The notes under the pieces: model-generated
Database searches by the model: none
Told to the model about the DNA's origin: nothing
What the model saw: the letters and a program-made list of their open reading frames with translations, nothing else
Program-made: the position numbers and the translations under genes
Shown here: positions 16,516 to 61,500 of the stretch, in pieces
Position numbering within the stretch: the first letter of the stretch is position 1
Layout: each line of letters begins with the position of its first letter
NCBI RefSeq assembly: GCF_037042905.1
Contig: NC_087250.1
Span: 5,706,001 to 5,770,000 of the forward strand
DNA from: Lytechinus pictus
Lineage: Eukaryota
Direction of reading: 5' to 3'
DNA: 64,000 bases

Positions 16516-19500
16516 GTAAGTCTCTAGTTTTACGTGTATTTTATAGTGTGTCGTGGGTGGTGTGGGGATGTAAACATGACGTGGAATTGAACGGGTGGGC
16601 CTGTGTTAAATCTTTCCAGCTGCATGCAGTGGAAGAATGTCGACAGCCTCTTTTAAATTGATTTTAGTCAGCTGTCGTCAGATATTTAACGATTCTAAAG
16701 AATTTCATCTTCAAGACACATGATTTACTGGGATGACTGAGTGTACTAATACTAATAGTTTGCTAAACATTTTTTTGTATGTCCTTTAAACTGAAAAATG
16801 AAATACAGGGATTACAGGCATTACAGCTACAGTCAGTTGAAGAGATTTGACACAAACATGATGAGCTTGCATTGACTTGCATGTTTGATGGAGTGTCCCT
16901 TCCAATGTCAATGGTTTTATGATCTGTGATCTTAGTAGAGTTAGAATACAGCATGCAGCAAGAGAGAAAGATTAAATTTAAAGTTGATAAGTTGAATGGA
17001 ACTGGACATGCTGGAGCTGAACAGCAATTAAATGTCATGGCGATGCGATTCAATGCCAAGGCAATGGCAATGAAGTCTCTGAGTCTGACTCTGTGCTGTA
17101 GCCGGGGTAACCCACTCACTCGCACTATGATATTATGAACATGATTTCACAATGGATTGTTGTTGTTGTTGTTGGATTCTTCAATGGATTCTTGAAAAGT
17201 TGGTAAACATCGCTTCATTTATAACAGAAATAATATTTGCTGAAACTCGTTTTCGCTACTCATCAGGCCGGGGCTCTTTCCGGTGAGTGGTTATCCGTTT
17301 TTTTTTATTTCAAAATATTTTCTTAAATAATATAAAAACACATAATAAAGAGCAAAATCGCTTACCTCGGCATGGAAAGTGGGTTTGCATATCTCTTTCA
17401 CAGAGATAAAAGGAAGCTCAATGTTGGCGCGAATAAAATTCTCAGCCTAAATTCTGCTCGTTATCGGTATTTTATTACTGTGTCTAAATTCATCGTATAC
17501 AAAATTACTATGATTGTTTGATAAAATATTGACACCAATAAAAAAAAAAAACACGTTTGGATTATTATTGCTGATGATGACACTTTTTGGAAATCATTTA
17601 AATTGATGACAAATTAAACCAAAAAAAGAAAATTCTAAGCCCCCCCTGGCTGTGAGAGGGGTATGAATATTAAATCCGGTTTTTTATAGGGTTAGGTGTC
17701 ATAATTTATGGCATGAGTTTATGTGTAAAATACAACCCTTTAAAAATTTTCAAGGGTAAAAAAAAAAAATGTTGATGCCTTGGGTCAGAATTCAAACCAA
17801 TAAAATTAGAATCCTCAATATTTTGTTATTTTATTACTGGAATAAAAAATAAAACTAACAACTTACTTCCGCAGTTGAGAACTACATGTAATTAATAACA
17901 TTTAAACATCATAGACCTGAGCGATCCGAAAAAGTAGTGTCCAAGAAACTCTTGTATCTTGTCTTTTATTCAACTTCGTGACTTCAAATTTTCACAGTAT
18001 GAGGAAGAAGAATCGCTCTTTCAGATAAATTATTGTTTTAATTTTTGGTTTTTGGAGACTAAATCCCTATTTTGGCTATTTACATAGAACCTTACCTGGC
18101 GACTTATTGGTGGTTTTGGGGTGGTAGGTGACCGTAGGTCACAAATGGTCAAATTACAAAAGCGGAAATTTCGTATACATGTAGGTCTACAGTTCTATTC
18201 AACTTGAAGCATCGTATTTGCTTTGACTGGAAGGTTTTTAGGAAAGTTCTTGATGGAAACTGCAGTTGTTTGTTTGTCTGACTCTGTGTGGGATTAGCAA
18301 TTTCATTATTATGGGAGGGACTTTATAGGTAATTACATGTATTTGGTTTGGTGGTTGGGAAAGAAACAAATGAAGTCGAGGGAGAGCTAAGGCAATATGC
18401 ATGGGTTTATTTCCAATTGGTATAATGCAGGGCTCCACACTAACCCATTTTTTCTACTGGTCCAACCTATTCATGTCGGACCAGTAGATACCCAGTTTTT
18501 CAAATTTTTACTGGTCCGAACCTAAAATCTACTGGTCCCAAAAAATAAAGAAAACATTAAAAAAGGCGCAATTTTATTTTTCTAGCGTTTTGTTACCCCC
18601 CCCCCCCCCCAAATAAAATGAAGGAATGAAGGACAAAAAGAAAGCAAGACAGAAACGAAGAAAGAAAGGAAAGAAAGAATAAAAGGAAGGAAGGAAGAAA
18701 AAAAAAAAAAAGGTAAAGAAAGGATAGATTCATGTGAAGGAAGGGAAAAAAAGAAAGAACTAAAGAAGGAAAGGAAGGAAGGAGTAAAGAAGGAACAAAA
18801 ATAAGAAAGAAAGAAAAGAAAAAAGAAATGAAGGACAGAAATGAAGCAAGCAATACAGAAAGAAAGAACGAATCCAGAAAGTAGTAAAGGAAAGAAAGAA
18901 GCAATAAAAAAGAAAGGGTAAAAGGAGAGATGGAAAGAAGGACAAAAGAAAGAAAGAGAGGAAGGAAGGATTGAAAGAAGGAAGAAAGGAATTAAGGAAG
19001 AAATAAAGGAAAGGTAAAATGATAGACAGAAGGAAAGAAATAAAGGAAGGAAAGGAAGGAAAGAAGCAAGCAATATAAAAAAAGAAAAGATGAAAGGGAG
19101 AAAAAAGAAGGACTGAGAGACAAAGAAAGGAAGGAATGAAAGAATAAAGGAGAGAAAGGAAGCAAGCAGTAAAAAAAAAAGGAAAGGTAAAAGGATAGAT
19201 TTAACAAAGGGAAAAAGGAAAGAACAAGACAGATAGACGAAAGGAAGGAATGAATTTAAGAGAGAGAGGGCTGAAAGAAGGAAGAAATAAAAAACAAAAA
19301 CAAGAAAGGGTAAATAAATGATGGATGGATGGAAGGAAGAAAGAAAGAAACATAGAAAGTAACAAAGAATGAAGGAAAGAAAAGGGTAAAAAGAAGGAAG
19401 GAAAGAAAGGAAGAAGAGAAGAGATGAATATAGGATGGATGGACTCAAGAATTAAAGAAAGGAAAATATCACCCAAAAAAAAGAAAGAAAGAAAGAGAGA

Positions 19501-58500: not shown

Positions 58501-61500
58501 GCTATTCTGAATGAACGTTAATCCTATTAGGTCCACAAGATATACCCATTTTTATCATTCTACTTTGGGAAAACAAACAGTTCATTCTCAAAATTCAACT
58601 ATTTTTTACTCTCATCGTTCTATGGCTATACATGTATTTCCCTTTAAAACATTTGACATTGACAAGACCAAGCCCGGAGACACATTTGTCATTGAAAATT
58701 TACGAGGTTGGTTTCCATGGTGACTGCAATAAACAATGCTTTTCTTGTGGTTTTAATTGTTCAGACAAGGTAGAAAAAGCTCTTACTAAATGCCATGTTA
58801 TCCAGCCTTGATTGAGGTTTAATCAGCGGAGATTATGTTGGTGATTATGGCAAGTTCTAGTCATGCAAAGGCACTATGATTCCATAGTCTGCCAGAGCAG
58901 ACCCATATTTGACACTAACTTTTAAAAACCATGTCTAGAGTGAAGACTAGACTCCCAAGTCTCTCTGGCAAACCCTTCACTTGAGATGAAAATTTTCAAT
59001 TCAGTTCAATTGGAGATCCTAGGAAGCCGTTCATGAAACAAATGCACCTGCATCCAGTATTGGAAATTTGTACGAAGTGGTCTGAATTACGCAGCCTCAA
59101 TTCCCTGGCAGTGACTTGTGCACGTACATGTAGGACCAACTTGTAGATCTAGGTGTCAATCGGGATCTGTGCCTGCTAATTTATCAATCAGCATCCTGTT
59201 TGGTAAAGACTTTTGTTATCATAACAAATGCACAATTTCTACAAGTCCACTACCAGCCAATCAAATCGAAGGTTTTCAGTAGCTTAAAACTGTTATTGCA
59301 AGTTTATTTATGACAAGTTTTACGAAACGGGCCCCAGTTCAACGAGACCATGGGCCCGTTTCGTAAAGGACTTGCAACTGTTGTAACTTTACCATGGAAA
59401 CGTTCATTATGATTGGCTGCTGAGCCCTGTTACCATGGTAGTTGCCATAATGGCAAAGTTACAACAGTTGCAAGTCCTTTATGAAACGGGGCCCCAGTAT
59501 TCTAAAATATTAGTCCTAAAATATCTTTTGACACAGAGAAAACTTCTACAGGTGTTAACCTATCACCGAGTCAGTTTTCATATTTATTGTTGAATATCCC
59601 CATTTTGATCTCTCTGTTTTGGAACTCCCTCCCTTTTTCTCTCCATGAAATTGACAAGATTGAACTCTTCAAAGTATCCCTCAAATTTCACTTCAGCAGA
59701 TGTGGAATAATTAGCTTAATTGGATTAGCCTGTGCCTACAAATGTTTTAACACAAATTTTTAACACAGATTTTACCCATTATCTTTCAAATTGCATATTG
59801 CCTTGTTCTGAGCATAACATATGTCATGGGAAAATATAATTCACACCACATATGTCAAGGTCAGGAGGAGATGATGTGAAACAATGTATTAAAAATACAG
59901 GGGAAAGGGTTGTCCACAAAATATCAGCCATTTTGAGGCATGTTTGCCAATTTGAGGATCCCCATAGAATGTACACCTAGACTTTTTAAACGTCCATAAC
60001 TTGCTTATTTCATAAGCGATTTTAATGAAACTTGTTTTAAATTGTTCCTCTCATTTTACTCTTTCTAATGAGATTGCTTCTCTTCTTGGGTTTTGATTTC
60101 CTTTAATACTTCATTTTCACATGATCTCTGCTATTGCTTTCCTCTTCTTTTATTTTTGTGCAGTGGTCGGAAACAAGATAGATCTGCCAAACTGGGCAGT
60201 AAACACAAAACAAGGAATGACGTTAGCTAAGAGTTATGGAATACCTTATATTGAAACGTCAGCTAAGACCAGACAAGGAGTAGTAAGTATTCTTGATTTA
60301 TAGATGTCATAAGAAATAATGATTATTATGAATATTTAGAGCAAAGTTGGCTCAGTCGGTAAAGCGTCTGCCTGTCAACCAAAGATCTCAGGTCCGAGTC
60401 CACCCTTGGAGGATGACTGAAGCCAGTGCGTTGTGTGTAAACGTCTCTCTCGTGTTTCATAGATGTTACAGTGGAAAACACTCTGTCCCTCGGATAGGAT
60501 GGTAAATGGAGACCCGGTGTAGAGGAGAGTCGCCACCTTTACACTTCAAGAACCCACTGCACTATTCGTATAAGAGCCGGGAGAAACCTCGGTGTAGTGG
60601 TCCACCTCCACTCCCCCGATCAGTTATATCGGGAGAGACCTGCGGGTCATAGTGATTCAGTTCGCTTTTCGCCTCCCAGGCACAGGTGACGCCAAAATAA
60701 TAATAATAATGACAAAACAGGATGTACCATAGTACATTCAATGTATGAACAGTCATATTTTACAATAATAATCTCAGTAGGTAGTTCAATAAAAAAATTA
60801 AGAAATAGATCACACAAAAAAAGGGTATGAGGGGGCAATGAAGCCAAGAATACTGGAAGCATTTCTTATTGGAAGAGAGATAGCATTGAAAGATTGGTTG
60901 TTTGCAGTGAACTCAACACCATACAAATCACTATTTTTTTTTCCAATTTCTGGGGCCATTATTTTTCCCAGATGTAAGGATGAAAAAAGATGAGGCGGAG
61001 TTAGAAATTTGGGTGAAATAACTATATTTCTAATTCATTCTCCTGAACAGACGTAACAAATAAACTAATTGAAACGTTGAGTTTGGTGGGGCTTTGTAGG
61101 ACTGAACACATGCCTCCAAAAGAATACATTGTTAAAGATAAATGCCAGTTGTGGTAACGATCTCAAAATGACTTTTTACAGAATTTAATATAATGACCAC
61201 CCAAGTGTCTGTTTGTATGAATAAAAAATATGTGCCAAATGATTCTGGAAGAAATTGTGTAATTGCTGAGAAATAAGCAAAATAAGCGTGGATTCGGGCA
61301 CTTCCGTCGGGTCTTTATTCCAGCAATAATAATATACACTGTCCCACGTGTGACTATCTGTGTAGGCGATCTTCAGTGTTATCGTTTTTTTCAGCTTTGA
61401 TTTTTTGAGTTCACAAAGTTCAGTTTATGTCACTGTACCAGATCTAGATCCACGATGATATAGTAATACTTAACTTTGGTTTTACAGACTTTCTCACGAA

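Follow-up and report, generated by a model that had tools for sequence, protein, structure and literature searches.

What explains the presence of dozens of copies of one short palindrome within a single intron of a Ras gene? The question is raised by a 64,000-nucleotide stretch of the genome of the sea urchin Lytechinus pictus (assembly GCF_037042905.1, contig NC_087250.1, forward-strand positions 5,706,001 to 5,770,000). The whole stretch is called the window here, and positions are counted from its first letter. A first reading of the letters, referred to below as the original prediction, proposed that the palindrome, TACATGTA, is a footprint left where DNA transposons of the Tc1 type were inserted at a TA dinucleotide and later excised. 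This reading is supported by insertions of CATGTA at TA, by a target signature of transposase type, and by a resident transposon family with the arrangement TA-CA...TG-TA. Each TACATGTA would have been left behind when a cut-and-paste transposon of the Tc1 type (DD34E) went once through insertion and excision, an explanation that draws on sequence comparison and to which we give a probability of roughly 0.85.

Number, placement and insertion of the palindrome

There are 47 exact copies of TACATGTA in the window. The background is provided by 100 dinucleotide-preserving shuffles of the 64-kb sequence, which hold on average 1.28 copies (standard deviation 0.96, maximum 4); none of the 100 reaches 47, and the enrichment is 35-fold. 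The shuffles put the chance rate nearer one copy per 50 kb than the one per 20-30 kb assumed in the original prediction. Its counts by eye were close to the exact ones. It gave about 44 copies between 17883 and 59132, where there are 45, and about 36 between 17.9 and 38.2 kb, where there are 37 (17883-38124). The first 16 kb hold exactly the two copies that it gave, each standing alone upstream of the gene (197-204 and 10877-10884). Neither the foldback at 12088-15583 nor the long terminal repeat (LTR) retrotransposon at 38807-46047 contains any, as had been reported. The 37 copies form a hot zone of 20.2 kb, at one per 550 bp, in the first long intron of the Ras gene. Its designation as Ras intron 1 agrees with coding exon 1 at approximately 16485-16514 and coding exon 2 at approximately 46075-46125, both on the + strand, with the 37 sites between them. 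Eight more copies are found in later Ras introns (46288-59132, one per 1.6 kb). Around the hot zone, 7 copies are spread over 36 kb on the upstream side of the first coding exon, and 2 over the 24 kb that follow 60 kb.

What is in excess is specifically the 8-mer bounded by TAs. Among words of the form TA-N4-TA in the window, TACATGTA ranks first, with 47 copies against 2.5 under an order-2 model. In the window together with 40 kb of flanking DNA, 54 of the 91 ACATGT hexamers are flanked by T and A, and any other pair of flanking bases occurs at most 6 times.

Genome-wide statistics come from pattern counts and from about 280 kb of fetched stretches. The genome of 812 Mb contains 224,046 copies of TACATGTA, or one per 3.6 kb, and 85,448 copies of the reversed control word. 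At the shuffle rate of the window about 16,000 copies would be expected, and the observed number is about 14 times higher. A total of 139 kb from 41 unrelated loci gives a similar density (39 copies, one per 3.56 kb). The fullest 20-kb bin in the first 337 kb of contig 1 has 13 copies, against 37 in the Ras hot zone. The enrichment over background for which the original prediction called is present in the window (35-fold), in the genome (about 14-fold) and in the intron relative to the genome mean (6.6-fold). Its gene-centred picture is correct in that the Ras intron is hot, but the excess is genome-wide and is not peculiar to the Ras gene.

Where repeats give the ancestral state, TACATGTA appears mostly to be a net 6-bp insertion at a single ancestral TA. 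The clearest reference is an old copy of a roughly 390-bp repeat with high copy number (20372-20760, + strand), which is 81-86% identical to its paralogues and carries two footprints, at 20394-20401 and 20622-20629. Both are 6-bp insertions at a conserved TA, and both are absent from 29 of 29 aligned genomic paralogues, in which the family state is TA, or TG in a few copies. The second had been singled out in the original prediction by comparison with a sister copy, and that in-window copy (47146-47467) also lacks it. Self-comparison of the window adds clean 6-bp gaps at 28104-28111, against a paralogue at 21467-21837 (67% identity), and at 56777-56784, a further predicted example, against the neighbouring tandem unit at 56606-56766 (91% identity). 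A count by hand of the private insertions of 2-12 bp in two repeat alignments gives 25 distinct ones. Seven of these are of the TA-X-TA type, or 5 of 23 without the two window sites that prompted the alignment; five create TACATGTA, one creates TACATTGTA, and one, of 7 bp, creates a second palindromic word, TAGGCCTA.

Passive carriage of TACATGTA within repeat families, with its spread by their copying, is very improbable as a general explanation, although it does account for 2 of the 47 sites. A young, non-autonomous element of 3.08 kb with terminal inverted repeats (TIRs) of 15 bp (TGGTCATTTTCAAAC) occupies 33194-36273 on the + strand. One copy on another contig matches it at 100% identity, and its other copies are 91-98% identical. 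The TACATGTA at 33476-33483 is present in all seven aligned copies of the element, and the one at 34386-34393 is present in the four youngest only; both were therefore carried in with the element, and were inherited here. About 35 of the hot-zone events, and not 37, therefore took place here, which corrects the original prediction. Even the copy at 34386 started as an insertion of CATGTA at a TA in a master copy, and the three oldest copies, which lack it, read GCTA followed by ATTATC at that position. In the oldest of all (L056, located in another part of the genome), 3.1 kb contain three private TACATGTA sites, two of which are clean 6-bp insertions at TA and one a 7-bp variant. Against passive carriage, the flanking sequences of all 47 sites differ, the sites at 20394 and 20622 are missing from every one of the 29 paralogues, and a search of the genome found no paralogue of the stretch 26476-27700, which has six sites.

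Replication slippage, or another form of templated repair, could make CATGTA repeats without a transposon, and some stacked copies look as it would predict. The two stacks noticed in the original prediction are real: a triple one, TA(CATGTA)x3, at 30542-30561 and a double one at 32213-32226, both homogeneous. At 29181 a 10-mer is duplicated in tandem, and the double word occurs 9,353 times in the genome. These 9,353 copies are in the TA...TA phase, however, and the same hexamer repeat in another phase occurs 2,537 times. A scan for TA-bounded units in the 104 kb around the site found 19 chains, against 1.74 in fifty third-order Markov simulations (maximum 6), and 17 of the 19 mix different units. 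At 27008-27021, for example, two footprint words have one common TA (TA-GGCC-TA-CATG-TA). Other mixed stacks are TA-CAG-TA-CATG-TA at 25053-25065, TA-CATG-TA-CACTG-TA at 20040-20054, and TA-CATG-TA-CA-TA-CAGTG-TA at 29438-29456. Mixed chains are beyond slippage, but they can be built if elements land again and again on the TAs that an earlier scar provides. Nor does slippage provide the first CATGTA, which has no adjoining template; the family consensus at 20622 is GGTCATAGACG. Templated copying of flanking sequence had been named beforehand as an outcome that would count against footprints, and it is not what is seen: CATGTA was added at a TA conserved in the family, with no CATG nearby. Slippage is thus a highly unlikely source of the excess.

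The bases around the sites carry information of their own. The flanks of 118 TACATGTA sites, pooled from the window and all fetched stretches with shared repeat bodies left out, were folded into 236 half-sites and compared with a background of 19,333 TAs. A is present at -3 in 50% of the half-sites and around 32% of all TAs (p = 4e-8), which gives a symmetric A(-3)/T(+3) pattern. Position -1 has less T and more G than the background (p = 1e-10), and T is raised at -6. The target consensus of the Sleeping Beauty transposase SB100X is given as ANNTANNT in PMC8934666. The A(-3)...T(+3) signature matches ANNTANNT, does not depend on the word itself, and points to a Tc1-type transposase as the agent that picked these TAs.

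This signature also bears on the possibility that TACATGTA is a selected cis-regulatory site for an Iroquois-type homeodomain or Myb-type factor, with intron 1 as a dense enhancer. There is precedent for such a role. In Phytophthora, the same palindromic 8-mer ("motif-1") is abundant in non-coding DNA; the accessible text of PMC3520976 describes it as an abundant promoter motif and cites it as the preferred Irx homeodomain site, considers a Tc1 footprint origin, and sets it aside in favour of a transcription-factor site; that text mentions no test of whether the word was inserted at TA. In addition, a MYB-related factor is reported to regulate effector genes (PMC11134190, in part). In the urchin, by contrast, there are 224,046 copies, and the word arises as private 6-bp insertions in decaying repeat copies. 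The flanks form a transposase target signature and no extended motif, and copies of the word stand in stacks and in mixtures with other TA-bounded units, among them TAGGCCTA, which has a like architecture. A regulatory origin is as poorly placed as slippage, and we consider it highly unlikely, although some copies may have been co-opted later as regulatory sites. An abundant palindromic 8-mer that emerges from motif discovery may be a mutational scar and not a binding site, which is a warning for such studies.

The least probable explanation, in which errors of assembly or sequencing put CATGTA in at TA, is contradicted by the insertion at 34386, common to four element copies at different loci and missing from three older ones as an inherited mutation would be, by a density that follows CpG depletion, and by an excess of decayed one-mismatch variants in the hot zone (26 against about 11 expected).

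A resident Tc1 family and the proposed excision cycle

The original prediction called for a TA-targeting transposon family with CA...TG ends in this lineage, and such a family is present. A genome search with Pfam DDE_3 (PF13358) gave 729 candidates and 150 scored matches, all above the cut-off and none with a stop inside the match. Among 12 fetched loci, young copies of one element are 98.6-99.7% identical over their common parts. The element is about 1.9 kb long with TIRs of about 195 bp. In six of six full-length copies a TA stands on both sides, and the ends read CACTACTC...GAGTAGTG, that is, TA-CA...TG-TA. Terminal 18-mers that include the TA, with at most one mismatch, have 279 and 282 matches in the genome, against 7 and 4 for the reversed control; the family therefore has about 280 copies. 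Its open reading frame (ORF) of 342 residues is intact in the copy that was read, and it matches HTH_Tnp_Tc3_2 (PF01498) with 68.4 bits and DDE_3 with 71.6 bits. The catalytic residues D153, D244 and E279 have the spacing D-90-D-34-E, the Tc1 signature. By these sequence features the young element is a Tc1 family (DD34E) transposon, and the family looks active. The inner bases of TACATGTA are equal to its CA...TG termini.

Many of the young Tc1 copies (L035, L038, L040, L041, L046 and many paired matches) are head-to-head inverted partial duplications, with transposase matches on opposite strands 1.3-1.7 kb apart.

The insert-then-excise explanation can be stated as a short series of steps. 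An element of the Tc1 type would land on a TA and duplicate it. At excision, the transposase would cut the two strands two bases apart, so that each flank keeps its TA together with two bases from the end of the element (CA at the left, TG at the right). End joining that retains both overhangs would turn TA into TA-CA-TG-TA, a net gain of CATGTA. The scar would supply two new TAs, and repeated hits would produce stacks and mixed stacks. The stagger of two bases and the joining of both overhangs in the urchin are inferred from the biochemistry of Tc1 and Tc3, both of which leave 2-base overhangs on the donor (bioRxiv 10.1101/659086, in part).

Known systems resemble the urchin in some respects and differ in others. 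The footprints of Tc1 and Tc3 in C. elegans have the same TA target duplication, CA...TG ends and 2-base donor overhangs, and taCATGta is cited as a rare Tc1 footprint (PMC3520976, which cites Eide and Anderson 1988). In the available text of bioRxiv 10.1101/659086, the commonest scars of Tc3 in the worm are TACATA and TATGTA. In the worm TACATGTA is called rare, whereas in the urchin the form with both overhangs dominates, with about 224,000 copies; the worm data are observed reversion events, and the urchin sites are fossil scars. Sleeping Beauty is likewise a Tc1-family element with a TA target, and its consensus ANNTANNT matches the urchin flanks. It differs in leaving 3-base overhangs, and its scar consists of the TA duplication and the terminal overhang bases joined by non-homologous end joining (PMC7827188, in part), a 7-bp footprint TAC(A/T)GTA. 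TACAGTA and TACTGTA are only weakly enriched in the urchin: the hot zone has 7, and an equal length elsewhere 3.2. In the 104 kb there is no copy of the 3-base product TACACGTGTA, and the 5-base forms TACAGTGTA and TACACTGTA are modestly enriched, with 13 copies against 2.6 expected in 217 kb. A survey of natural excisions in rice (O. sativa against O. glaberrima) also compared sequences on a genome scale. According to the accessible part of PMC4423477, it found 94 putative excisions, of which 8 were "perfect" and most were accompanied by filler DNA or deletions. The scars of the urchin, in comparison, are uniform and outnumber these by three orders of magnitude.

Several observations weigh against this explanation or limit its reach. 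First, its source is not at hand locally: no young Tc1 copy lies within the 104 kb around the site, and no resident CA...TG element was found in the hot zone. With only about 280 copies in the family, most scars must stem from earlier activity or from other CA...TG families or MITEs (miniature inverted-repeat transposable elements). The decay of the scars leads to the same point. One-mismatch variants of TACATGTA number 46 in the window, against about 34 expected, and about 15 decayed scars beside 37 intact ones in the hot zone suggest a mean age of about 5% divergence, which is a rough figure. The scars are older than the young family, whose copies diverge by about 0.5%, and so earlier activity or other families made most of them. 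Second, the hot zone has barely more TACATA and TATGTA than DNA elsewhere (32 against about 22 in 20 kb), and repair in the urchin would have to differ from that of the worm. Third, the comparison with paralogues is not clean at 20929, 25676, 31812 and 32945, and it is ambiguous at 33000 and 37378. At 37378 the original prediction saw an insertion at TA; the TACATGTA is there, but its sister copy has 10 other bases at that place. Most hot-zone sites are in unique DNA, of which 26476-27700 is an example, and paralogues polarise the repeat-borne sites alone. Fourth, no locus was seen that is filled in one haplotype and scarred in another, in an assembly without an alternative haplotype of the region. 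Finally, membership of the inverted repeat/direct repeat (IR/DR) group, which matters for the hot zones, is only suggested for the urchin element. Its TIR arms have a perfect outer block of 36 nt, a conserved inner block (about 130-195) and a diverged middle, with no clear direct repeat of the outer site.

The footprint mechanism is already known, and the urchin is a new instance of it. Three aspects of it appear to be undescribed: how common one uniform scar is (one per 3.6 kb), that the form with both overhangs dominates, and that the scars cluster in CpG-depleted DNA. A search of full-text literature, mostly without subscription journals, found no account of a Tc1 footprint that is naturally in excess across an animal genome. 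Excision footprints belong to textbook knowledge, usually as single events in the laboratory, and they are few and messy in the rice survey as far as its available text describes them. A uniform scar at about one per 3.6 kb is a usable marker of landings and departures, of preferred TAs, and of break joining in the germline. Scar counts could size past cut-and-paste traffic against the few hundred elements that are left. They could also show whether, in a natural host, insertion or excision is guided by chromatin or by DNA methylation, and they could measure the transposon share in small insertions and in new palindromic motifs in introns.

Hot zones and CpG depletion

The density of scars varies with the CpG content of the DNA. 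TA dinucleotides, the presumed targets, are equally numerous in hot and cold stretches. Across 154 bins of 1450 bp, in which neighbouring bins are not independent, the count of TACATGTA is negatively correlated with the observed/expected (o/e) ratio of CpG (Spearman -0.33, p = 3e-5). With the window region left out, the coefficient is -0.34 (p = 0.002): 42 sites fall in 32 CpG-poor bins and 9 in 51 CpG-rich ones, corresponding to 9.05 per 10 kb at a CpG o/e below 0.6 and 1.22 at 0.6 or above. Random flanks alone give -0.23 (p = 0.08). The controls are flat, with a ratio of 1.09 for other NACATGTN words and 1.00 for TA, and TAGGCCTA shows no significant effect of CpG depletion in the same bins. 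In the Ras region, the CpG-rich DNA at 8-16 kb has one site and the DNA at 16-36 kb (CpG o/e 0.47-0.63) has 34.

Three other small-GTPase genes, found by a PF00071 search, have 12, 1 and 1 sites in the first 10 kb after the first coding exon. A rule based on 5-prime intron position was dropped on these numbers, as position alone predicts no hot zone. In the gene with 12 sites, there are none in the first 6 kb (CpG o/e 0.68-1.27) and then 23 in 14 kb (0.24-0.55), and the two cold introns have a CpG o/e of 0.55-1.11. The hot-zone pattern is thereby replicated in one of the three other small-GTPase introns sampled.

CpG depletion marks DNA that is methylated in the germline, which in invertebrates consists mainly of the bodies of broadly expressed genes. 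The scar-rich, CpG-depleted DNA is therefore probably methylated in the germline. The original prediction spoke of a probably germline-transcribed gene. It gains from a scar density that follows this proxy of germline methylation and from a second small-GTPase gene that behaves alike, but the link is only indirect.

Published transposition assays offer a possible mechanism. According to PMC3680223, Sleeping Beauty, Frog Prince and Minos, which are IR/DR elements, show more than 20-fold higher transposition when CpGs are methylated, and they are also excised more. By analogy, elements with long, two-block TIRs may excise more readily from methylated, compact chromatin and re-land nearby, with many cycles and few elements kept. 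This is the cause of the hot zones that we prefer, tentatively and as somewhat short of an even chance. A live alternative is that a hot zone owes its existence entirely to one element that hopped locally. A broader proposal is that Tc1-type long-TIR elements cycle preferentially through methylated gene bodies in the urchin germline. They would land there, be excised quickly, as synapsis is favoured in compact methylated chromatin, and settle again nearby. The roughly 290,000 scars of the form TA-NNNN-TA would be a fossil map of methylation-dependent transposition, and scars would be a main source of small intron insertions. This proposal is less likely than not to hold; in the two repeat alignments, scars make up about a quarter of the small insertions.

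Three points weigh against a role of methylation. Tc1, Himar1 and Hsmar1 show no methylation effect in the same source (PMC3680223, in part). The link with CpG is confounded by age, as old DNA both loses CpG and gains scars. Some CpG-poor stretches, such as that at 60-72 kb, are cold.

A second palindrome and other features of the window

The word TAGGCCTA is also a TA-bounded palindrome, with the architecture of TACATGTA, and it too is stacked. It occurs 66,473 times in the genome, against 3,425 for its reversed control, 22 times in 217 kb against 1.3 expected, and 8 times in the window against 0.35 expected. The exact matches in the window start at 6198, 9613, 11275, 27008, 27237, 28996, 39889 and 45880. 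In one paralogue of the 390-bp repeat it is a 7-bp insertion at TA. A scan for TIRs in the fetched DNA gave nothing convincing for a TA-GG...CC-TA element that could be behind it. Transposase genes of the IS1595/ISL2EU type have 53 matches in the genome, and their ends fall within tandem repeats, so that the limits of the elements are undefined. Copies of this type on three contigs (L057-L059) are 99% identical over 4.6-4.8 kb, and at least two are bordered by long arrays of a tandem repeat of about 120 bp. Clustering of TAGGCCTA with TACATGTA is not established: at 41 loci the binomial p is 0.004 and the Spearman correlation is not significant, and in the first 337 kb of contig 1 the two are uncorrelated.

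The flanking duplications of the 3.08-kb element are variable and of 2 bp (CA, AC, TT), and two of its seven copies are located within an ACATGT core. In the window its flanks, ..GATGTACA and CATGTATA.., can be read as a TACATGTA split with a 2-bp duplication, and on that reading its insertion would have split one further footprint. The idea that the element itself has the form TA-CATG...CATG-TA was dropped, given the variable 2-bp flanks of the six other copies. Two copies of a roughly 400-bp MITE, whose 29-bp TIR (TAATACCCCTTTCATAAACCCAATAAAAC) is perfect, lie in the hot zone (30694-31090 and 36588-36995), and the ends of this MITE are not CA...TG.

Close upstream of Ras coding exon 1, the foldback at 12088-15583 is a long, near-perfect inverted repeat in a stretch that is both CpG-rich and AT-rich. 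The LTR retrotransposon (38807-46047, - strand) interrupts the hot zone. Comparison of its 1252-bp LTRs finds them identical, and one edge of the element is about 30 bp from Ras coding exon 2. It has an intact ORF of 1525 residues at 40148-44725 on the - strand, whose domains are of the Ty3/gypsy type even though those of the integrase come ahead of reverse transcriptase and RNase H.

Additional Ras exons on the + strand are near 47.05, 49.9, 57.9, 60.2 and 61.6 kb. With approximate limits, they include the exon with EDSYRK...DTAGQEEY (49870-49953), the exon SAMRDQYM...EEVPMV (57883-58026) and the exon VGNKIDLP... (60166-60282). The start of the SAMRDQYM exon and the end of the preceding intron are present as three partial copies (56723, 56879 and 57764) in tandem repeats upstream of the real exon at 57883, and these could act as decoy splice acceptors. 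G or C runs abound throughout the window, for example at 28311-28328 and 28479-28489. Overlapping counts are 88 for GGGGGGGG and 61 for CCCCCCCC, against fewer than 0.5 expected from dinucleotides, and such runs frequently adjoin the ends of repeats.

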